A stretch of DNA of 64,000 nucleotides from an uncultured Candidatus Saccharibacteria bacterium (GCA_963516005.1 CAUPYP010000001.1:39400-103399), one strand, 5' to 3'. Positions 5,051 to 56,806 are shown, numbered from the stretch's first letter. The notes: generated from the letters alone by a model not told the origin. A program made the numbers and translations.

Positions 5051-5096
5051 TAGAAAAAAAATATCGGTGTGTCTTTATTTTTAAGCATAAGCAAGG

Positions 5097-5102
5097 TATA
5101 AT
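5097..5102 (+). promoter_or_regulatory. -10 box TATAAT 6 nt upstream of ATG 5109 (leaderless-type start)
   Basis: The sequence reads GGTATAATttaagtATG, with no SD element. Confidence 0.45.
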
Positions 5103-5108
5103 TTAAGT

Positions 5109-5501
5109 ATGAAATTTCAACTTTCTTCGCGTAAAGTGGTGCGTTTAGTGATTGTAGCTATCGGAGTAGTGACTTTGATCGTGATGTTGTTGATGGTGTT
5201 AAACGAAAAAAATATTCACGACAAAGTGACGGATATGATAGTTATGCTGGTTGGGATGATTGCGCTGGTAATGGCGGTACTGACCGAGGCGGAGCTGGAG
5301 CGTCATACACGACGATCATTGCAGATTCATCAAGAAGTGCTGGCGGCGCTGGCAGAAATTCGGGAAATTAATCACGATAATGATAAAATACGGCAACTTA
5401 TCAGCAAAGATTATCAAGTGGATAAACAAATTGCTCATCGGCTTGCGCATCTGACAGAACAGGCTGACGCTTCTAAGAAGGCGACTAGGAATAAGGAATA
5501 A
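5109..5501 (+). CDS. Hypothetical membrane protein (2 TM plus a helical cytoplasmic tail)
   Basis: 130-aa ORF with two hydrophobic helices. TATAAT sits 6 nt upstream of the ATG. No family recognised. Confidence 0.6.
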   Translation: MKFQLSSRKVVRLVIVAIGVVTLIVMLLMVLNEKNIHDKVTDMIVMLVGMIALVMAVLTEAELERHTRRSLQIHQEVLAALAEIREINHDNDKIRQLISKDYQVDKQIAHRLAHLTEQADASKKATRNKE

Positions 5502-5513
5502 TCAGGGCGGGTT

Positions 5514-6503
5514 ATGAAAATTATCAACTTCGGGGTGCGGGAAGATGAGCGTCAGTATTTTGAGCGGTTTGCGACAGAATTTGGCGTGCAATGTTTTACA
5601 ACAGATCGTCCCCTTGATAAAAGCACGATGCACTTATTAAAAGGTATGAATGGCGTGACAGATATTACGACGCGCTGTTATGCACCAGAAGTGTATCAGA
5701 TGATGCATGATCAAGGTATTAAGTATTTTTCATTGCGTCAGGCGGGATTTGATGGGCTGAATTGCGTTGATGGTCGGCGCTATGGCATACGGTTTGCGCG
5801 CGTGCCAGATTATTCACCTAATGCGATTAGTGAGCATTCGGTGGCACTAGCCTTAATGCTATTGCGTAATTTGCACACTGGCTACATGCGTTGGCATAAT
5901 CAAGATTATCGCTTAGAAGGCTTAATTGGCAAAGAAATTCGTGATTATACAGTGGGTATTCTCGGAACGGGGCATATTGGACTCGAGGCGGCGAAGGCGT
6001 TTCAGGGGTTTGGCGGACGGGTGATTGCCTATGATGTGGCGCCACGACCGGAGGAACGGAAGTGGCTGGAATATGTCGATGATTTGGATGATTTTTTCCG
6101 TCAGGCAAATTTGATTGGGATTTATATGCCACTTAATGCCGGTAATCACTGCATTATTAACCAACAAACCATCGAAAAAATGTCAAATGGCACGGTGATT
6201 ATTAACGTGGCGCGAGGTGAACATATCAAAACTGACGATTTGTATCAAGCGCTGGTATCGGGAAAATTGGCTGGTGCGGCACTAGATGTATATGAGGGTG
6301 AGCGTGGGATTTTTCATCAGGATTTTTCGACTCGAGCAGTGCCAGATGAACTATTTCGTAAGCTTGAAGCTTTGCCGAATGTGATTATTACTCCGCACAT
6401 TGCCTTTAATACTGATCATGCGGTGCGTAATATGGTCAAAATCAGCTTAGAAAATATTTTAAAAATGTCTAAGTGTGATAAAATTAAAAATGAAATACCT
6501 TAA
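5514..6503 (+). CDS. D-isomer-specific 2-hydroxyacid dehydrogenase (D-lactate dehydrogenase-like)
   Basis: Has the NAD-binding GILGTGHIGLEAA motif and catalytic Arg/Glu/His contexts (VARGEHI, DVYEGE, ITPHIAF). Confidence 0.8.
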   Translation: MKIINFGVREDERQYFERFATEFGVQCFTTDRPLDKSTMHLLKGMNGVTDITTRCYAPEVYQMMHDQGIKYFSLRQAGFDGLNCVDGRRYGIRFARVPDYSPNAISEHSVALALMLLRNLHTGYMRWHNQDYRLEGLIGKEIRDYTVGILGTGHIGLEAAKAFQGFGGRVIAYDVAPRPEERKWLEYVDDLDDFFRQANLIGIYMPLNAGNHCIINQQTIEKMSNGTVIINVARGEHIKTDDLYQALVSGKLAGAALDVYEGERGIFHQDFSTRAVPDELFRKLEALPNVIITPHIAFNTDHAVRNMVKISLENILKMSKCDKIKNEIP

Positions 6504-6531
6504 GTTAACTTAAATCATAGGGGAGAAAAAA

Positions 6532-8388
6532 ATGAGTAGGTGGCAAAAAATGCTTTTGGTGGCTGGTTTAGCGCTGGTCGGCACCATCGGTTCGGTAATT
6601 GGTTTAACGACGCAGTTAGTTAGCGCTGGCGTCGATAATTTTTATTTTGATAAAATGGAAGTCGATTATTATCTCAGTAAAAACGCCGATGGTCAATCAC
6701 AATTACGCGTCAAAGAAGTCTTGTATCCAGTTTTTCCAAATTATAATCAGAACCGGGGGATTGTCCGGTCGATTCCACTGACTTACCAAAAACACACACT
6801 TGATTTGCAGATGGGCGAGATGTTGCGCGATGATTTGCCAGCCCCGGTTTATAAAGACGAAACCAAATCTGGTTTTCGAGTGCTAATGATTCGCGACAAG
6901 AGTGATTCAGCATATTTGCATGGTCGCCATAAGTATGAATTTAATTACACTATGCGTGATGTGACGATGAAACCAACTGATAACCCTAAACAGGAGTTCT
7001 ATTGGGATGTTAATGGTACGGGCTGGCGTCAACAATTCCGACAAGTGGTGGCGCGAGTGCACTTAGATGAGTCGATACGAGGTGATTTTAACCCTAATCA
7101 AGTTGCTTGCTATACGGGCAAGTTAAATAGCACTGAACGCAATTGTCGTTATGTCATCAGTCAAGACAAGAGTGTTGTGACATTTACAACAACTAAATCA
7201 TTAGGCATTGGTGGTAATATAACTATTGCAATGCAGTTTAAAGAGGCAACTTTTGCGGAGTATAAAATTAGTGATCATCACCGTATGTTAGCTTGGCTAG
7301 TGGCAGTACTTGGTATTGCTGGCGTTGGCTTGATGCTGGTGGCAATTGGGCAAGTATTGAGATTGTCTCGTCGCAATAAGCCAACCACAATTGTGACTGA
7401 ATATTTACCGCCAGCGGAGCTTGATGTTTTTCAATCAGCGGTTTTAGATGCTAATCTAACGTCCTATTCAGCTAAGACTATGCCAGCTGGCTTGATTAAT
7501 TTAGCGATTGAGCGCAAGATTCAAATTATTGAACAAGACACTTCAGTGCTTTTGTTTAATAGTAAAGATTATCTGGTTAAGGTTTTGCCTAACAAAACCT
7601 GGACTAAGCGCGAAGAGGCATTTTTCTTCGCAATCTTTAAGACTAAGCCAGTTGAAGGCCAGAGCTATAAAATCGAGAAGCGAGACTACGGTATGAGTTC
7701 ACGTGTCGAATCATTTACGGAACGAACGGTAGATTCGCTTCAGGGAGATTTCTACGATATACAAGCCACTAAACAAGCGACACGACCAATTTTAATTAAA
7801 ACAGTGATAGCAATGATCGCGTCTGGCATCTCGATGGTTGTACTCCTAACTTCTCTAGAAGCAGTTAGTGTGGATAGTATGAGTGGAATCTTAGCTGATG
7901 TATTTAGGCCGTTCTCAATCGTATTTATTCAAGTTTTGACAATTGTGGTTGGTGTATTTATCCTGACGTTCAATGCGTCGTTTAAACAATTAACTCCAGC
8001 TGGACTCAAGGCGAAAGCGCATCTCAAAGGGTTAAAACGTTATATTACAATGGCTGAAGCGGAGCGGTTGGCATTTAACCAATCAGTAAGCGGGGCAGCG
8101 CGTGATGCTCAAGGGTTAGTCGAATTATACGAGCGGTTGTTGCCGTATGCGGTTATGTTTGGCTTAGAGGCTTCATGGAGTAGAGTATTGAATGCGGTCT
8201 ATAAGGAAGCAAATTATACACCAGCTTGGTATTTCGGCACACAAGCCTTTAATGCTTCATCGTTTAGTCGTTCAATCGGCTCATTTAGTTCGGCGGCTTC
8301 GTCAGCTAGCTCGTCTGGCCGATCGGGTTCGGGTGGAGGCGGATACTCTGGCGGTGGAGGCGGTGGAGGCGGTGGCGGTGGATGCTAA
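6532..8388 (+). CDS. DUF2207-like membrane protein with a C-terminal poly-Gly tail
   Basis: Signal/TM segment, a large extracytoplasmic domain, several TM helices, and a Ser-rich then Gly-run C-terminus (GGGGYSGGGGGGGGGGGC). This layout is characteristic of DUF2207 proteins. Confidence 0.65.
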   Translation: MSRWQKMLLVAGLALVGTIGSVIGLTTQLVSAGVDNFYFDKMEVDYYLSKNADGQSQLRVKEVLYPVFPNYNQNRGIVRSIPLTYQKHTLDLQMGEMLRDDLPAPVYKDETKSGFRVLMIRDKSDSAYLHGRHKYEFNYTMRDVTMKPTDNPKQEFYWDVNGTGWRQQFRQVVARVHLDESIRGDFNPNQVACYTGKLNSTERNCRYVISQDKSVVTFTTTKSLGIGGNITIAMQFKEATFAEYKISDHHRMLAWLVAVLGIAGVGLMLVAIGQVLRLSRRNKPTTIVTEYLPPAELDVFQSAVLDANLTSYSAKTMPAGLINLAIERKIQIIEQDTSVLLFNSKDYLVKVLPNKTWTKREEAFFFAIFKTKPVEGQSYKIEKRDYGMSSRVESFTERTVDSLQGDFYDIQATKQATRPILIKTVIAMIASGISMVVLLTSLEAVSVDSMSGILADVFRPFSIVFIQVLTIVVGVFILTFNASFKQLTPAGLKAKAHLKGLKRYITMAEAERLAFNQSVSGAARDAQGLVELYERLLPYAVMFGLEASWSRVLNAVYKEANYTPAWYFGTQAFNASSFSRSIGSFSSAASSASSSGRSGSGGGGYSGGGGGGGGGGGC

Positions 8389-12496: not shown

Positions 12497-13798
12497 ATGC
12501 TAGATATCAATTTTATTCGCGACAACCAAGATAAAGTCCAACAAAACGCTATCAACAAAGGTGTTGATGTGAGCGTAGCAGATTTGATTAAGTTGGATGA
12601 TCGACGCCGTGAGTTGCAAGCGCAACTGGATGAGCTACGTCAAACCCGCAACCAAATCGCCGACCAAATCAAGCAAGCCGGTAAGCCGGATCAAGAGCTT
12701 ATTGACAAAGGTAAAGCGATCAAAGAACAATTAACGGCACTAGAGGCTGACTTTAATCAGAATTATGAACAATATTTAGCGCTGTTGAAGCGTGTTCCGA
12801 ATATGGCGCTTGATAGTGTGCCAGTTGGTTTGACTGAGGATGAAAACGTGCTTGATTATCAGGTGGGCGAACCAACCAAGTTTGATTTTGAACCAAAAAA
12901 TCACTACGAAATTGCTAAAATGCGTGATTGGATTGATAAAGAACGAGCGGCGCAAGTGACTGGTGCGCGGTTTGCTTATCTAAAAGGTGATTTAGTGAAA
13001 TTGCAATTTGCAATTATCAACTTCGTGATGGACACGCTGAGTGATGAGGCAGTAATTGCGCAAATTGTGCATGATAATAATCTGAACATCAGCACTAAAC
13101 CATTTATGCCGATTTTGCCGCCATATATGATTAAAACTGCACCGTATGACGCCATGGATCGCCTCGAGCCTCGCGAAGATCGCTATAAGATTGAAGGTGA
13201 GGATTTGTGGCTACAGGGTAGTGCGGAGCACGTTCTAGGAAGCATGCATGCTGGTGAAATTTTTGAAGAAGCGGATTTGCCAGTGCGCTATCTCGGCTAT
13301 GCAACTAGTTTCCGCAAAGAAGCTGGAACTTATGGCAAGGATATGGAAGGGATTTTACGCATGCACCAGTTTGATAAACTAGAGATGGAAACCTTCACAA
13401 CTGCTGAAAAAAGCCATGACGAACACCGCTTGTTGGTGGCAATTCAGGAATATATGTTAAAAGCGCTCGAATTACCGTATCAAGTGATTAAAAAATGTAC
13501 TTTTGATATTGGTAAACCAAACGCTGCTGGCGTTGATATGGAGGTGTGGTTGCCAGGTCAGGGCAAATACCGTGAAACGCACACTGCTGACTATATGACG
13601 GATTATCAAGCGCGTCGTTTGCAAACGCGCGTCCGTCGTGCTAATGGCGAGCTGGAGCTAATCCATACGAATGACGCAACAGCTTTTGCGATTGGTCGGT
13701 TGCTGATTGCGATTATCGAAAACGGTCAAACTGCTGACGCCAAGGTCAAAATCCCAACCGTTCTGCAAAATTATCTGGGTGGCCGAACAGAGATTTAG
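12497..13798 (+). CDS. serS: Seryl-tRNA synthetase
   Basis: An N-terminal coiled-coil arm (MLDINFIRDN..) is followed by a class II core (FRKEAG, GSAEH). Confidence 0.95.
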   Translation: MLDINFIRDNQDKVQQNAINKGVDVSVADLIKLDDRRRELQAQLDELRQTRNQIADQIKQAGKPDQELIDKGKAIKEQLTALEADFNQNYEQYLALLKRVPNMALDSVPVGLTEDENVLDYQVGEPTKFDFEPKNHYEIAKMRDWIDKERAAQVTGARFAYLKGDLVKLQFAIINFVMDTLSDEAVIAQIVHDNNLNISTKPFMPILPPYMIKTAPYDAMDRLEPREDRYKIEGEDLWLQGSAEHVLGSMHAGEIFEEADLPVRYLGYATSFRKEAGTYGKDMEGILRMHQFDKLEMETFTTAEKSHDEHRLLVAIQEYMLKALELPYQVIKKCTFDIGKPNAAGVDMEVWLPGQGKYRETHTADYMTDYQARRLQTRVRRANGELELIHTNDATAFAIGRLLIAIIENGQTADAKVKIPTVLQNYLGGRTEI

Positions 13799-13881
13799 GA
13801 CGCGAGCTAAAACTTGATTACCTCTTGAGTGATGGTGAAGCTTTATGATAAAATAAAGACAAGCAAAACTGAAAGGAAAAT

Positions 13882-14250
13882 ATGAACAAAGTTGAAATTT
13901 CGACCATTAAATATGACGCCGATGATACCATTAAACAATACGCTGAGAAAAAAATCGGCCATACTTTGAAATATCTGCCACGTCACGCTAAGAAAAGTGC
14001 TAGTTGTCACGTCACTCTCGAGAAACTTTCAAAAAAGCGCGATGATCAGTATCAGGTTGAGGTGGCGATTACCGTTCCAGATAAGACTTTGACTGTTACG
14101 TCGAATGCCAGTACGATTTTGGCGGCGATTGATATTGCACAACCAAAAATCCTGTCGCAAGTACGCCGTTACAAAACCGAAACCGTTCCGCATATCGGTA
14201 AACGAGGCGTGTTCTCAAAACTGAAGAATAAGTTTTTAAACCGCAAATAA
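13882..14250 (+). CDS. hpf: Ribosome hibernation/associated factor (HPF/RaiA family, short form)
   Basis: 122 aa. The N-terminal beta-alpha pattern (MNKVEIST..DDTIKQYAEKKI) fits the family, as does its position upstream of secA as in Firmicutes. Confidence 0.6.
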   Translation: MNKVEISTIKYDADDTIKQYAEKKIGHTLKYLPRHAKKSASCHVTLEKLSKKRDDQYQVEVAITVPDKTLTVTSNASTILAAIDIAQPKILSQVRRYKTETVPHIGKRGVFSKLKNKFLNRK

Positions 14251-14278
14251 TACGGAAGCCACATCTCTCAAACAAAAC

Positions 14279-23440: not shown

Positions 23441-23449
23441 TGCTATAAT
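23441..23449 (+). promoter_or_regulatory. Extended -10 TGcTATAAT 6 nt upstream of the ftsE ATG
   Basis: The sequence reads TGCTATAATaagcttATG. Confidence 0.5.
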
Positions 23450-23455
23450 AAGCTT

Positions 23456-27707: not shown

Positions 27708-27739
27708 GCTTTAAGTAATAGATATTACAGAGAATGAGG

Positions 27740-27745
27740 TATAAT
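27740..27745 (+). promoter_or_regulatory. -10 box TATAAT 6 nt upstream of the rnhA ATG
   Basis: The sequence reads GGTATAATtaaaacATG. Confidence 0.45.
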
Positions 27746-27751
27746 TAAAAC

Positions 27752-28198
27752 ATGATTGTGTACACTGATGGATCGGCTAGTCCAAATCCTGGCCCGGGCG
27801 GTTTTGCGGTAATTGACCAACATGGTCAACCGCTAGCTTTGGGGCGAGAAGCGTATTCGACTAATATTCAGATGGAAGCGGTGGCGATTATTGAGGCGCT
27901 AAAATTAGCTGATGGGCAACCGATTAAGATTTATACCGATAGTCAGTTTTGGATTAATGTTTTAACGCAATGGGCGCCAACTTGGGCCAAAAATAATTGG
28001 ACGAAGAAAAAAGGCGAGATTAAAAACCTTGATTTAGTTCAAACTGCTTTTGAGCTGTATCAACAGTCACAGGCGACCTTAATTTGGGTGAAGGGACATA
28101 GTGACAATCAGCTCAACGCTCAAGCTGATTATTGGGCAAATCAAGCGCGCCAAGGTGTGACGTTAACCGAAGTAAAGGAGAAAATATGCGCAAATTAG
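27752..28198 (+). CDS. rnhA: Ribonuclease HI
   Basis: A full DEDD/H set is present: YTDGS, QMEAVA, IYTDSQ, KGHS, AQADYWAN. Confidence 0.9.
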   Translation: MIVYTDGSASPNPGPGGFAVIDQHGQPLALGREAYSTNIQMEAVAIIEALKLADGQPIKIYTDSQFWINVLTQWAPTWAKNNWTKKKGEIKNLDLVQTAFELYQQSQATLIWVKGHSDNQLNAQADYWANQARQGVTLTEVKEKICAN

Positions 28199-28719
28199 CT
28201 ATCAAAGTTAAAATCAATGATTCGGTGGCGATTAGCAAAGCATTATATGATGCTGGTCGCAAACTAGGAGATGAATATCAGCAGTTTGATCGAGTGTTTA
28301 TGCCACGTGGTTATCAAAAAACCTATCCAGACCCATCGGTGGCACCACAGCTGATTATTCGTACTAATACGATTGCCGGCCAAATTAGCCATATGATGAT
28401 TTTAAAACGCCCGGTTAATCCTAATTTGACGTATTTTTTTCAGACACAGGTGATGGATTATAATCAAACTGCGCATATCGTCAGCAATATGGGTTACGAG
28501 CTTCACACGGAAGTACCAAAACGGCGCCGTAAACTACTAATTGGTAGTGTAGTGCTGTATTTAGATTATATTGATGGCCACGGCTGGTTTTTAAAAATTG
28601 AAAAAAATCTCAAAAACCACGAAACCGACAATACTGATGATTTATGGAAAATCCTTGAATCGCTCGGTGTACAGCAAGTCGAGGCAGTCGGCCGTTACAG
28701 TGAAATAATTAAACAATAG
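28186..28719 (+). CDS. CYTH-fold (CyaB/ThTPase-like) protein with a degenerate acidic active site
   Basis: The ATG at 28186 follows AAGGAG. The C-terminal pattern VPKRRRKLLIGSVVLYLDYIDGHGWFLKIE matches the CyaB-like K-R..Y..v.lD.v.glG.F.EiE pattern. The N-terminal ExExK is replaced by AIKVK. Confidence 0.55.
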   Translation: MRKLAIKVKINDSVAISKALYDAGRKLGDEYQQFDRVFMPRGYQKTYPDPSVAPQLIIRTNTIAGQISHMMILKRPVNPNLTYFFQTQVMDYNQTAHIVSNMGYELHTEVPKRRRKLLIGSVVLYLDYIDGHGWFLKIEKNLKNHETDNTDDLWKILESLGVQQVEAVGRYSEIIKQ

Positions 28720-28728
28720 GAGAAGAAT

Positions 28729-29745
28729 ATGACCTTAGATACCAATGACCAAGATTCAAAAGCTAGCGAAAAAGTGACTGTCGGGTTTGATTTGTTTAAC
28801 TGGGCGAATAATATCGAGCGTTTCAAAAAAGAACTTGATATGGAAGTGCTGGTGATTAACAAGCACTTTACACCATTTCGGCTCAATCTCGATCAGGATT
28901 TAGATAACCAAACCCGAACAATTTTCTTGTACGAGCTGGTTAATTTTATTAATAAGGGCGCCGAGATTGGGCTGGAGGTCCGGCAATTTGAAATGGAAGA
29001 AGCCTCGAAAGATGTTGTGCTTTATACAACACTAAACCGTGTGGAGCGAGCCAGTTATTTGCTAGACTTCCTGAAAAACCGCTACGGTGAAGTCGTTGAT
29101 TTTAATAACAGCGAGCATGAATTCCGCTTAATGAAAGCCATCGTGGTGAAGTTTACCCATAAAACAGGTGAAGTCGAACCATTTTATATTATTAAACAGC
29201 TGGCCGCTTCGCAGGCAGTGTCGGGCACGACCGCTTGGCAAATCAACAGTTCAAAAGTCGAAGCGTTTGCAAGTGATGTCAGCTTAAAACCACCACTTGA
29301 TAACCAAATGTTGTTAGTTGACAACCAGATTTTTGTGTTTAATCAGGCGAAATTTGAGCGTTTGTTTAATTACGATTACAAAAAACAACTAGTGGCGGAA
29401 GAAAAAGTTCGGGCGATTGAACAGCACTTTAAGCTGAGTTTTCCAGAGGGCGTATCAATGAATATGCTGATCAAAGAGCGCAAAAAGACGCTCGCTAAAA
29501 TCCAAAAACTCGACGTCGATTTTCCGATGAATCAAGAGGAACTGATTGAATATGCTGATGAAATGCAGTTGGAATTGATGACCGATGACCAGGGTGCGAT
29601 TATTATTCTGGATGGTAATGATTTAGATATGTTTATTGGCTTGCTCAACGAAGATTATATGGTCAGCACCGTCACAAACCGTCGTTATGAAATTACTGCC
29701 AAAAAAGCCATGAATGCTCCTGATGGTGAACCGCCACGAGGCTAG
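28729..29745 (+). CDS. Hypothetical protein; possible DUF4868/KwaB-like fold (unverified)
   Basis: 338-aa soluble protein translationally coupled between the CYTH and Pif1 genes. Its size and C-terminal pattern (LLVDNQIFVFNQAKFERLF ... LLNEDYMVSTVTNRRYEITAKK) recall DUF4868. This is from memory only. Confidence 0.35.
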   Translation: MTLDTNDQDSKASEKVTVGFDLFNWANNIERFKKELDMEVLVINKHFTPFRLNLDQDLDNQTRTIFLYELVNFINKGAEIGLEVRQFEMEEASKDVVLYTTLNRVERASYLLDFLKNRYGEVVDFNNSEHEFRLMKAIVVKFTHKTGEVEPFYIIKQLAASQAVSGTTAWQINSSKVEAFASDVSLKPPLDNQMLLVDNQIFVFNQAKFERLFNYDYKKQLVAEEKVRAIEQHFKLSFPEGVSMNMLIKERKKTLAKIQKLDVDFPMNQEELIEYADEMQLELMTDDQGAIIILDGNDLDMFIGLLNEDYMVSTVTNRRYEITAKKAMNAPDGEPPRG

Positions 29746-29748
29746 GAC

Positions 29749-31029
29749 ATGGATCAAGCGCAAGCTCTGAAGATTTTAAACTCCGGTCGCTCAGTGCTAA
29801 TTACTGGTCGAGCTGGTTCGGGTAAGACTTATTTATTAAATCAGTTTATTAAGGCTCGGCGTCAAGCTGGCAAGGTATTAGCAATCACTGCAACGACTGG
29901 TCTGGCGGCGACTCATATTGGCGGTGAAACGATTCATCGCTGGAGTAAAATTGGTGTTCACGACCGATTGCCGGCTACTTTTTTCCAAAAGCTAACTACT
30001 AAAGACCGCCAGCGTCTGTTAGAAGTCGATACGTTAATTATTGACGAAATTAGTATGTTGTCAGATCAGCAATTTGATATGATTAATCAGGTACTAAAGG
30101 CAGTTCGTAGTTCAACAGCGCCATTTGGTGGAGTGCAAGTGGTGATGAGTGGTGATTTTTTTCAGTTGCCACCGATTAAGCGCCAAGTTGTTCAACTCGA
30201 CGTATTTAGCGATGGAGCTGGGGCGGGGTTTGTGACGAGCTCGCGAGCTTATCAGGAGTTAGCGCCGACGGTGTGCTACCTCGAGAGTCAATTTCGTCAG
30301 TCAGACAATGATTTATTAAGCGTGTTAGAGGCGATTAGGACCGGTAATTTTGATGAGTACGAATTTGAATTTTTAAAAAGTCGCCTACATCAACAACCAA
30401 CTGAAGCTGACGGCGTGGTGACGAATTTACATACCTCAAACATGGACGTTGATCGGGTCAATAGTATTAGCTTGGCGCGGATTCGCAATGAGTTAGTCAG
30501 TTATCAGATGATGGGTAGTGGTAGTCGGTATGGTCTGGAGGTACTGAAAAAATCAGTGCTCGCCCCGGAACAACTTGATTTAAAATTAGGTGCGGAAGTG
30601 ATGGCGATTAAAAACGATGCAAAATTACGCTTCGTTAATGGCAGTCTTGGTAAGGTGGTTGATTTTGCTCTTAAGGAAGGCAAGCGTTTGCCGGTGGTGG
30701 AGTTTAACTCTGGTCGGCAGGTGCTAATTGAGCCAGATAGCTGGGACTTAGCGGAAAATGATGTGAAAGTGGCAAGTGTTGCGCAATTACCATTACGCTT
30801 AGCCTATGCGATTACGATTCATAAAGCGCAGGGTATGACGCTGGATAAGGCCAAGATTAATCTGGCCAAGGCTTTTACGCCGGGGATGGGGTATGTGGCA
30901 TTGTCACGAGTGCGGCGATTAGAAGACTTATATTTGATGGGTATTAATCAAATGGCATTGACTGTGTCTGAAGAAGCTCGTCAACTTGACGAAGATTTGA
31001 AGCGCCAATCGCGCATGGAAAAAGTTTAG
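29749..31029 (+). CDS. pif1: Pif1-family (RecD-like SF1B) DNA helicase
   Basis: Walker A GRAGSGKTY, Walker B LIIDEISML, the Pif1 signature PFGGVQVVMSGDFFQLPPI, IHKAQGMT and YVALSRV. Confidence 0.85.
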   Translation: MDQAQALKILNSGRSVLITGRAGSGKTYLLNQFIKARRQAGKVLAITATTGLAATHIGGETIHRWSKIGVHDRLPATFFQKLTTKDRQRLLEVDTLIIDEISMLSDQQFDMINQVLKAVRSSTAPFGGVQVVMSGDFFQLPPIKRQVVQLDVFSDGAGAGFVTSSRAYQELAPTVCYLESQFRQSDNDLLSVLEAIRTGNFDEYEFEFLKSRLHQQPTEADGVVTNLHTSNMDVDRVNSISLARIRNELVSYQMMGSGSRYGLEVLKKSVLAPEQLDLKLGAEVMAIKNDAKLRFVNGSLGKVVDFALKEGKRLPVVEFNSGRQVLIEPDSWDLAENDVKVASVAQLPLRLAYAITIHKAQGMTLDKAKINLAKAFTPGMGYVALSRVRRLEDLYLMGINQMALTVSEEARQLDEDLKRQSRMEKV

Positions 31030-31047: not shown

Positions 31048-31056
31048 TGCTAAACT
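31048..31056 (+). promoter_or_regulatory. Extended -10 TGcTAAACT 6 nt upstream of the yvcK ATG
   Basis: The sequence reads TGCTAAACTaaaatcATG. Confidence 0.4.
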
Positions 31057-31062
31057 AAAATC

Positions 31063-32094
31063 ATGAATAATAATCCATTTCGACCTGATGAGGTCAAAAT
31101 TGCGGTCATCGGTGGAGGAACTGGTAGTTTTACTTTACTCTCAGCGCTCAAAAAACACACCAGTCAGATTGCCGCGCTTGTGAATATGGCTGATGATGGT
31201 GGCTCAACCGGCCAATTGCGTGATGAATTAGGAGTTTTGCCGCCTGGTGACGTTCGGCAATGTCTGGTGGCTTTGTCGCGTTTTCCAGAAGTGCGTGATT
31301 TATTTAATTATCGGTTTGAAGCCGGTAGTTTTAAAGGGCATGCCTTTGGCAATTTGTTTTTGACAGCGCTCGAAAAAATGAAAGGTGACTTCGCGGAAGG
31401 GGTGAAGCTAGCTGGTAAAGTATTAAACATTATCGGTACTGTTGAACCAATTACCCTTAATAACGTCACTTTGATGATCGAAGATGACAAAAAGGTAGTC
31501 AAAGGCGAGTATCGAATCAGCGAAAAACGCTTTGCTCAGGCGCGACCAAAAATCTGGCTCGAACCGCACGCTGAGGCTAACCCAATGGCAATTGGAGCGA
31601 TTATGAACGCCGATATGGTGGTGATTGCGCCGGGCAACTTATATAGTAGCTTAGCGCCAGCTCTGTTGGTTGACGGTGTTGGTGAAGCCCTCAAAAGCTC
31701 CCGTGCACTCAAAGTGTATGTATGCAATCTCATGACTAAACCTGGCCAAACTGATGGTTTCATGGTGCAGGATTTTGCGAGCGAAATTGAGCGAATTGCC
31801 GGTACGGAGTTTTTAGATGTAGTGGTGTTTAATACCGAAATCCCAACCGATGAGCTGATCAAAAAATATGCTCGCGATGGCGAATTGCCGGTTGGCTACG
31901 ATGAGCTGGACTTGCTTGAGCAGAATTATCAGGCGCTTGGTGCGAAACTGCTCTCGAGCCAAGTATGGCAACCAGTCAGTAAAGCCGACCCAATTGCCTC
32001 TAGTCGCACACTGATTCGTCACGATTCTGATTTAATTGCTAAGACGTTGCTGGAAGTGTATAAAACTTACAATTTACAGCGCAATGGTGAATAA
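31063..32094 (+). CDS. yvcK: YvcK/CofD-family protein (UPF0052, gluconeogenesis-factor-like)
   Basis: IAVIGGGTGSFTLLSALK and NMADDGGSTGQLRDELGVLPPGDVRQCL. Confidence 0.85.
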   Translation: MNNNPFRPDEVKIAVIGGGTGSFTLLSALKKHTSQIAALVNMADDGGSTGQLRDELGVLPPGDVRQCLVALSRFPEVRDLFNYRFEAGSFKGHAFGNLFLTALEKMKGDFAEGVKLAGKVLNIIGTVEPITLNNVTLMIEDDKKVVKGEYRISEKRFAQARPKIWLEPHAEANPMAIGAIMNADMVVIAPGNLYSSLAPALLVDGVGEALKSSRALKVYVCNLMTKPGQTDGFMVQDFASEIERIAGTEFLDVVVFNTEIPTDELIKKYARDGELPVGYDELDLLEQNYQALGAKLLSSQVWQPVSKADPIASSRTLIRHDSDLIAKTLLEVYKTYNLQRNGE

Positions 32095-35144: not shown

Positions 35145-35161
35145 AAGGCTATTATATATGA

Positions 35162-36542: not shown

Positions 36543-37082
36543 ATGAGCGAGATTTTGATGATAATTGGTGGGGTAGTGGGGGCGATGTTTTTGTTGACAG
36601 TGCTAGTTGGTGCACCGTATGTGCCAACGCATAGTCGTCAGTTTCGTCGGCTGTTGCGTTATTTACGGCTTAATCCGCAGACCGATGTATTGGTCGATTT
36701 AGGTGCGGGCGATGGGAAAATTGTGCGCTTGTCAGCTCCATATGTGAAATTAGCGCTGGGCTACGAAATCAATCCGGCTCTAGTAGCGCTGGCAAAATTA
36801 CGCACTCGGAGTTTCCAGAATACTCGTATCAAATTGGCTGATTTGCGTCAGATTCAGTTGCCTCCGGAAACGACTGTAATTTATATTTTTTCAGCTGGAA
36901 CTTTTTTAAAACAAGTGATTGCGCTCATTAACCGACATCTCCAGCAAGCTAATCGACCATTAACAGTGATTAGTTATGGCTTTGAAATGCCGGATCTCGG
37001 CCAGCCGGAGGTTTATCAGGGCTTTTTGATTTATCGCCTCAAGCAAAAAAGCACTAGCAAAAAACCGTCAAGCAGGGTATAA
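36543..37082 (+). CDS. Small class I SAM-dependent methyltransferase with an N-terminal TM helix
   Basis: Motif I VLVDLGAGDGKIV, then GYEINP. Confidence 0.6.
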   Translation: MSEILMIIGGVVGAMFLLTVLVGAPYVPTHSRQFRRLLRYLRLNPQTDVLVDLGAGDGKIVRLSAPYVKLALGYEINPALVALAKLRTRSFQNTRIKLADLRQIQLPPETTVIYIFSAGTFLKQVIALINRHLQQANRPLTVISYGFEMPDLGQPEVYQGFLIYRLKQKSTSKKPSSRV

Positions 37083-37083
37083 T
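37078..37083 (+). promoter_or_regulatory. -10 box TATAAT 7 nt upstream of ATG 37091
   Basis: The sequence reads GGTATAATttaacttATG. The box overlaps the stop of the upstream gene. Confidence 0.4.
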
Positions 37084-37090
37084 TTAACTT

Positions 37091-56684: not shown

Positions 56685-56806
56685 AACCGTATTATCTCAT
56701 ATTTTACTAAAAAACTCAATCGCGTCTCGAGTGTGTTAAGCGGACTGGCGAGCGACACAACTCCCCTACTCTTTTTGTGTGAAAAATAGCACTCGTTAAT
56801 GAGCGA

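Follow-up and report, generated by a model that had tools for sequence, protein, structure and literature searches.

The KwaB-like gene and its neighbors

We analyzed a 64,000-nt stretch of DNA (the window) from an uncultured Candidatus Saccharibacteria bacterium (GCA_963516005.1, CAUPYP010000001.1:39400-103399), in which four + strand genes at positions 27752-31029 encode an RNase HI, a protein of the CYTH fold, a protein related to KwaB of the Kiwa anti-phage system, and a Pif1-family helicase. Saccharibacteria (TM7) are ultrasmall, naturally competent episymbionts with very small genomes. The original prediction, made from the sequence alone, had read these genes as one operon and as a candidate nucleic-acid surveillance or defense module, with housekeeping processing of RNA-DNA hybrids as the alternative. 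The open reading frames (ORFs) and the spacing that it described are reproduced exactly: rnhA (27752-28198, 148 aa), the CYTH-like gene (28186-28719, 177 aa), the kwaB-like gene (28729-29745, 338 aa) and pif1 (29749-31029, 426 aa) are joined in turn by a 13-nt overlap (28186-28198), a 9-nt gap (28720-28728) and a 3-nt gap (29746-29748), with a TATAAT at 27740 ahead of them and yvcK (31063-32094, 343 aa) behind. This spacing takes ATG 28186 as the start of the CYTH-like gene in preference to the TTG at 28132 listed by the ORF finder, because a GGAG lies at 28177-28180 and all 12 of 12 aligned homologs begin M-R/K-K. The kwaB-like gene is preceded by GGAG at 28719-28722, and pif1, which starts 3 nt past the kwaB-like stop, by GAGG at 29738-29741.

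The 338-aa protein is a true, full-length homolog of KwaB/DUF4868, a resemblance that had been proposed from its size and C-terminal pattern. It scores 34.0 bits to PF16162, above the cut-off of 26.3, and is matched along its full length by the PADLOC KwaB models (30.6 bits). The NCBIfam KwaB equivalog NF041623 gives 44.9 bits over residues 33-326, far below its cut-off of 200, so the window protein is a family-level KwaB homolog and not an equivalog. Its AlphaFold 2 (AF2) model has a mean predicted local distance difference test score (pLDDT) of 72, with a well-predicted core. Foldseek comparison of this model with the Protein Data Bank (PDB) returns 9mrx, 9mtn and 9nyu, all of them KwaB, at E 2e-9 to 2e-7 over ~325 aligned columns, with template modeling (TM) scores of 0.40-0.46; the next match has an E of 0.7, and no PDB structure other than KwaB is matched significantly. 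Queried by sequence, the PDB yielded no match to either the protein or its family profile, and the link to solved KwaB is reached only through structure and via an intermediate sequence, P0237. The bridging alignment that results runs colinearly with E. coli KwaB and includes a common C-terminal motif, LLNEDY..S..T..Y..K. The window protein thus has in common with the E. coli KwaB of Kiwa its length class and its two domains, an N-terminal Rossmann-like domain followed by DUF4868, at ~12% identity.

Among 22 KwaB-like sequences spanning 50-88% identity, 72 columns are invariant. These include G166, W170, P189 and D191-N192-Q193, a loop that the model cannot place, and the extreme C-terminal tail PEGEPPRG, which reads PDGEPPRG in the window protein. 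The segment encoded at 29206-29298 (residues 160-190) has a pLDDT below 50 despite its family-invariant G166, W170 and P189; judging from the model, it probably becomes ordered only in an oligomer or in a ligand-bound state. The region at 29680-29745 ends in the tail, and P-E/D-G-E-P-P-R-G is present in 107 of the 120 closest homologs but in none of the oral/Southlakia-type subfamily. The invariant GEPPRG tail is an extra relative to Kiwa KwaB; it looks like a docking peptide.

The two kinds of KwaB also differ in charge. E. coli KwaB binds DNA non-specifically via a positively charged channel in DUF4868 (Kiwa paper). Its C-terminal (DUF4868) half has a net charge of +5 and an isoelectric point (pI) of 9.11, whereas that of the window protein has a net charge of -7 and a pI of 4.97. 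The difference holds more widely: this half is basic, at pI 8.7-9.4, in E. coli KwaB, in the KwaA-linked protein P0141 (described below) and in four canonical-looking KwaBs, and acidic, at pI 4.8-5.6 with a net charge of -2 to -10, in the window protein and ten members of its clade. When the DNA-contact residues of E. coli KwaB predicted by AlphaFold 3 (AF3) were mapped (R142, R167, K187, R233, N134 and D169), one of the six positions proved to be conservatively kept (R167 -> K187), although the same positions vary among canonical KwaBs too. With an acidic DUF4868 half and a single contact kept, KwaB-style non-specific DNA coating should not be assumed for this clade.

Canonical Kiwa requires KwaA, a four-helix membrane protein encoded beside kwaB (Kiwa paper). 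We looked for a KwaA as a protein of ~190 aa with four transmembrane helices in the same operon. The direct neighbors of the kwaB-like gene are the CYTH-like gene and pif1, and both flanking products are cytoplasmic. PADLOC models found no KwaA among 17 window ORFs, including multi-transmembrane ORFs of up to 320 aa picked by a hydrophobicity screen (at least two hydrophobic segments); as a positive control, the KwaA of a related locus, L088, scores 98 bits to PADLOC KwaA. A tblastn search with this Saccharibacterial KwaA found nothing in the window or in 89 related loci. The locus is not a Kiwa system: as had been noted, there is no KwaA-like membrane partner, and the context is new for KwaB.

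Locus L088, which has Saccharibacteria-type synteny, holds both types. Its KwaA (6463-7014, 183 aa) overlaps a KwaB, P0141 (7001-7942), and a separate, KwaA-less copy of the window type lies ~5 kb downstream at 13199-14278, 41% identical to the window protein. Since both coexist in one genome, the canonical and KwaA-less types are distinct. P0141 is the closest KwaA-linked relative that we found and comes from the same lineage (229 bits against the family profile; 31% identical to the window protein). It overlaps KwaA and has a basic DUF4868 half (pI 8.7), whereas the window type is KwaA-less and acidic. The canonical pair lies just past a prolyl-tRNA-synthetase-type gene, roughly at the rnhA-kwaB-like site of other genomes, and the KwaA-less copy is followed by a NUDIX gene.

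The cluster has also been likened to Hachiman and Gabija. This likeness is one of general design only, a helicase gene beside an uncharacterized partner, and the partner proteins encoded here have no homology to HamA of Hachiman or GajA of Gabija. PADLOC gave no Hachiman match for the cluster and only a weak, P-loop-level match to GajB (13.9 bits). The Pif1 helicase domain matches the PADLOC candidates PDC-S68 and PDC-M16A via its generic helicase core only, and no PADLOC model matched RNase HI or the CYTH-like protein.

Distribution and synteny across Saccharibacteria

The KwaB-like family comprises 1653 homologous clusters at 90% identity. Among the 120 matches listed, all at least 49% identical to the window protein, every source name shown is a label for Saccharibacteria or Patescibacteria. 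The protein is encoded in at least 281 species-representative genomes, a lower bound from a genome scan pre-filtered by pattern and capped; a few of these metagenome-assembled genomes (MAGs) carry other taxon labels, yet their synteny is the same. Among 1.84 billion representative proteins, a profile search recovered only 257 clusters at 50% identity with E<=1e-3. By these searches, the window-type KwaBs are a compact clade, all but confined to Saccharibacteria and far from the bulk of KwaBs. One locus, L007, comes from a MAG of an uncultured Candidatus Saccharibacteria bacterium and is 97-100% identical to the window across the region.

To describe gene order we used 80 species loci, with evaluable loci as denominators. 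Upstream of the kwaB-like gene, 57 of 71 loci have a same-strand rnhA; downstream of it, 52 of 58 have a same-strand pif1, 17 of them within 100 nt. A CYTH gene adjoins the kwaB-like gene in only 13 of 71. The tight rnhA-CYTH-kwaB-pif1 arrangement is confined to the window's own subclade. The conserved core of the locus is the kwaB-like gene, pif1 and rnhA. Four further arrangements occur: rnhA-CYTH-kwaB-yvcK; CYTH-kwaB-pif1; rnhA-kwaB-(insert)-pif1; and, in the oral-type subfamily, pif1 upstream of kwaB, followed by GH1 and yvcK. All five keep the kwaB-like gene beside at least one of rnhA, CYTH and pif1. The closeness of the kwaB-like gene to pif1 outlasts the order swap: the two genes adjoin each other in Southlakia, and in oral taxon 955 they are separated by an ABC/FtsX pair. 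Start codons overlap or are coupled in the window and in L003-type loci.

Between the kwaB-like gene and pif1 is a variable insertion spot, occupied in 38 loci among L005-L086 by 0.25-2.5 kb of DNA. It was considered as a possible defense island, and this was rejected on its contents, which are mainly pilin-like, HD-domain or miscellaneous: of 56 ORFs at the spot, 15 fall in one pilin-like cluster, whose representative matches the type IV pilin N_methyl motif, and 4 are HD-domain-like. L022 has a toxin-antitoxin-like pair there, and L047 a prephenate-dehydratase-like gene. A 342-aa protein encoded after pif1 in L001 was considered as a KwaB paralog and rejected on comparison. We also rejected a phage origin. 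The virus-flagged L087 (IMGVR_UViG_3300008472_000016) has the cellular RNaseH-KwaB-like-Pif1 order, at a contig end, and tblastn against INPHARED phages found no KwaB-like match. One 37%-identical fragment was found in BFVD (A0A8S5QWK1), in a metagenomic 'Siphoviridae sp.' record. Virus-flagged records of the family are probably cellular DNA or prophage flanks.

The KwaB-like protein diverges as slowly as Pif1, RNase HI and YvcK; mean pairwise identity is 0.717 for KwaB-like, 0.709 for Pif1 and 0.639 for YvcK. Pairwise distances of KwaB-like and Pif1 correlate at r = 0.96-0.97, the highest of the compared gene pairs (0.65-0.74 for the others), and the partial correlation given YvcK (CofD) and RNase H is r = 0.91. 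This co-variation is suggestive of a link between the two, though not decisive. As judged from synteny and sequence conservation, the KwaB-like clade is vertically inherited, under strong purifying selection and core-like, and the family is neither patchy nor island-borne. This differs from Kiwa, which spreads by horizontal transfer and on mobile elements: for canonical Kiwa, horizontal transfer is dominant and more than 50% of loci lie on mobile elements (Kiwa paper), whereas window-type KwaB is inherited vertically, class-wide.

Genetic data come from Southlakia epibionticum, in which the gene order is RNaseH-hyp-Pif1-DUF4868-GH1-YvcK (PMC10633639 Tables S1, S2). We infer that its DUF4868 protein, SEML1_0265, is the ortholog of the window's KwaB-like protein from synteny, its PF16162 annotation and its length of 337 aa; P0325, a sequenced representative of the oral type, is 38% identical to the window protein. 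In transposon sequencing (Tn-seq) of Southlakia co-cultures, SEML1_0265, pif1 (0264), the hypothetical gene 0263 and yvcK were non-essential at all passages (PMC10633639), and rnhA was scored NE/NE/GD, that is, with a growth defect at the last passage only (PMC10633639 Table S1).

Other products of the cluster and its transcription signals

The products of the two outer genes are as originally described. RNase HI is intact, scoring 113.5 bits to Pfam RNase_H (PF00075) and 111 bits to NCBIfam ribonuclease HI, with all its catalytic residues in place (D6, E42, D63, H116 and D126). Pif1 is a short-form helicase of superfamily 1B (SF1B), with 117 bits to PF05970, 28.2 bits to Pif1_2B (cut-off 23.9), a Walker A motif GRAGSGKT and a Walker B motif DEIS. 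It has in common with other bacterial Pif1 SF1B helicases the Walker A/B motifs, the Pif1 core and the 2B/SH3 domain, but it is ~80 aa shorter than the Pif1 of most Saccharibacteria (~505 aa). The window's pif1 differs from other bacterial pif1 genes in its 3-nt coupling to a kwaB-like gene, a pairing absent from the searchable literature.

The CYTH-like protein has the predicted fold and the predicted loss of metal-binding acidic residues. Its scores fall below cut-off for both Pfam CYTH (21.7 bits against 23.2) and TIGR00318 (31 against 58). Its AF2 model has a pLDDT of 90.7, and Foldseek matches the model at TM 0.75-0.81 to class IV adenylate cyclases and triphosphate tunnel metalloenzymes (TTMs; 2een, 7nsf, 3n0z). 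With these proteins it has in common the eight-stranded tunnel fold and the basic tunnel residues, here R36, R59, K74, R75, K112 and R114. The metal-binding motifs are degenerate: β1 reads MRKLAIKVKI, with no D or E where EXEXK is expected, and the C-terminal 'E/D-I-E' motif is K137-I-E139, its first acid replaced by an invariant Lys. Both substitutions are unvarying across 13 homologs, so that where CYTH/TTM enzymes have EXEXK this family has K-L-(A/S)-I-K. Since the β1 glutamates are lost and the basic tunnel is kept, a role in binding phosphate or nucleotides is more likely for the protein than a catalytic one as cyclase or triphosphatase.

The -10-like box TATAAT (27740-27745, + strand, read directly) lies 6 nt before the rnhA ATG at 27752, which gives the leaderless-type layout claimed for this promoter. 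It is missing from a two-hexamer promoter scan because it has no -35 match. When the sequences upstream of 54 window genes were compared, TATAAT was found 5-7 nt before the ATG of several other operon-first genes, at 5109, 23456, 33984(-), 37091 and 53961(-), while internal genes, including the three downstream genes of the cluster, have GGAG-type ribosome-binding sites instead. This recurrence makes a leaderless reading of rnhA plausible, with the reservation that GAGG at 27736-27739 could serve as an alternative, distant ribosome-binding site, and it suggests that leaderless transcripts are common in this genome. Regions with TATAAT-type boxes were noted at 5095-5108, 23442-23455, 27740-27751, 31051-31062, 35145-35160(-), 37076-37090 and 56685-56700(-). 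At the downstream boundary of the cluster, yvcK/CofD (31063-32094; CofD Pfam 293 bits) has its own -10-like box, as predicted: TAAACT at 31051-31056 on the + strand, 6 nt before the yvcK ATG, in a TAGACA-18-TAAACT arrangement with an upstream TG. A terminator scan found no terminator-like site on the + strand within 27752-31029. The generic promoter scan found 15 sites against 10.0 +/- 3.2 in shuffles, which is no enrichment, so the promoter and operon calls rest on position and geometry rather than on statistics.

Tight gene spacing runs all through the window, and the cluster matches its flanks in GC content. GC skew is positive in nearly all 1-kb bins and most genes lie on the + strand, as expected of a leading-strand stretch. 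Neither tRNA genes nor Rfam families at gathering threshold were found in the whole 64-kb window. A 179-aa methyltransferase-like ORF at 36543-37082 partially matches PADLOC 'mad2' (38 bits) and has weak Pfam methyltransferase matches; its product may be a lone DNA or RNA methyltransferase.

Proposed function of the KwaA-independent KwaB clade

The explanation that we consider best, and hold to be about as probable as its negation, is that these loci encode a vertically inherited, KwaA-independent derivative of KwaB that serves Pif1 and RNase HI as an accessory factor at DNA forks or at hybrids of RNA and DNA. It sets out from what is observed, namely the homology to KwaB, the absence of KwaA, the packing of the operon, its conservation and its synteny, and from there we infer the partnership with Pif1 and the substrate. 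The KwaB-like protein would no longer be a membrane-tethered effector that coats DNA non-specifically; it would instead be an accessory or regulatory partner in transactions of Pif1 and RNase HI at forks or hybrids. These substrates could be chromosomal, or could arise from DNA that these naturally competent cells take up. The CYTH-like protein would bind a phosphate compound or nucleotide and is, within this explanation, an optional ligand-binding extra of some lineages. On the whole the lineage resembles a domesticated factor associated with a helicase more than it does a classical, mobile defense system.

Several points weigh against this explanation. The model of the KwaB-like protein is of moderate confidence only (pLDDT 72; TM 0.40-0.46 to KwaB). 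The pairwise distances behind the co-variation are not mutually independent, and within the main clade alone the margin shrinks to r 0.62 against 0.40-0.47 for control pairs. Four species (L003, L013, L014 and L021) have rnhA-CYTH-kwaB-like-yvcK with no adjacent pif1, and 14 evaluable loci have no nearby rnhA. These four are Nanosyncoccaceae-like genomes, tightly packed, with no pif1 within 8 kb. Saccharibacteria are moreover broadly syntenic, and unrelated genes such as yvcK and ctpA also lie nearby, so linkage alone is weak evidence. The dispensability of the gene in phage-free co-culture fits defense as well as it fits DNA metabolism. A defense role is possible, since the only characterized relatives are anti-phage proteins, but it is unsupported.

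Such a role would make the locus a KwaA-independent variant of Kiwa, fixed in the chromosome across the class and directed against phage or other foreign DNA. The KwaB-like protein would bind replication intermediates or the DNA of an invader, and the place of KwaA as sensor or effector would be taken by Pif1, RNase HI and, in some cases, CYTH. We regard this as unlikely. The homology to KwaB is full length, and KwaB of Kiwa, the only characterized homolog, is an anti-phage DNA binder that stalls forks (Kiwa paper). P0141 sits in a Saccharibacteria-syntenic genome, which suggests recent common ancestry with real Kiwa; the Southlakia genes are dispensable in culture without phage; and a helicase with an uncharacterized partner is a common defense design, although the PDC-S68 and PDC-M16A matches of Pif1 stem from the generic helicase core only. 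Canonical Kiwa, however, is mobile and driven by horizontal gene transfer, whereas here the gene is inherited vertically at a core-like site that has no island features and matches its flanks in GC, and is conserved as well as its housekeeping neighbors. The inserted ORFs are mostly pilin-like, HD-domain or miscellaneous, RNase HI and CYTH have no PADLOC match, and the DUF4868 half has no net positive charge and conservatively keeps one of six predicted contacts. A canonical Kiwa with its kwaA at another genomic site, or with a kwaA so divergent that it escapes detection, is also very improbable. The inspected sequence covers only 64 kb of the genome, and kwaA and kwaB are sometimes transferred independently (Kiwa paper); yet neither the PADLOC models nor the Saccharibacterial query, with a working positive control, found a kwaA in the window or the 89 loci. 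In L088, moreover, the canonical pair overlaps while the window-type copy stands alone 5 kb away, and the DUF4868 half is reversed in charge across the family, which argues for another mode of action.

The cluster could, on the other hand, have no functional unity at all: four unrelated genes might have been packed together by genome streamlining and held by frozen synteny, with the KwaB-like protein in some unrelated, Saccharibacteria-specific role. The class-wide synteny of unrelated neighbors (ftsEX, CHAP peptidase, ctpA, yvcK and mraZ/rsmH), the tight spacing throughout the window, the rarity of an adjacent CYTH gene and the inserts of up to 2.5 kb that split kwaB-like from pif1 in many genomes would all be accounted for. 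We nevertheless think this improbable, because the five arrangements, including the swap in pif1 order, keep the kwaB-like gene beside rnhA, CYTH or pif1; KwaB-like and Pif1 co-vary more than either does with yvcK or rnhA; and starts overlap or are coupled in the window and in L003-type loci. Strictly read, the original prediction holds in that the 338-aa protein belongs to no universal housekeeping family, the genes are linked in relatives and the structural likeness to KwaB is there. Its defense module is not borne out, in view of a family that is neither patchy nor island-borne, vertical descent in a core neighborhood, conservation equal to that of Pif1, RNase HI and YvcK, and an acidic DUF4868 half; the alternative that it offered, housekeeping processing of RNA-DNA hybrids, fits the distribution better.

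The KwaB homology is itself already known: 'KwaB-like domain-containing' is the NCBI name of the family's proteins, and the SEML1_0265 entry of Wang et al. carries DUF4868. The searchable literature on DUF4868/Kiwa in Saccharibacteria holds no description of the KwaA-less clade, of its class-wide conservation, or of its linkage and co-variation with Pif1 and RNase HI. Since automated annotation already reads 'KwaB-like', the homology is not new, and what is new is the context and the evolutionary behavior of the lineage. KwaB has been known solely as the effector of Kiwa, a mobile, membrane-anchored two-gene system, and here a KwaB lineage behaves like a core gene. Tentatively, and with more doubt than conviction, we propose that a derivative of KwaB that works independently of KwaA has become fixed throughout the class Saccharibacteria, where it serves Pif1 and RNase HI as a dedicated partner, either domesticated for the handling of chromosomal or foreign DNA or as a new type of immune module that is universal and non-mobile. 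Saccharibacteria such as Southlakia are genetically tractable, so the idea can be put to the test now. To our knowledge, the cellular role of bacterial Pif1 is poorly understood, and the link to Pif1, if real, would provide a candidate partner for it together with a concrete case of exchange between defense and housekeeping. Either version of the proposal, if true, would be the first function of KwaB outside Kiwa, and could show what cellular activity the effector of Kiwa was recruited from.

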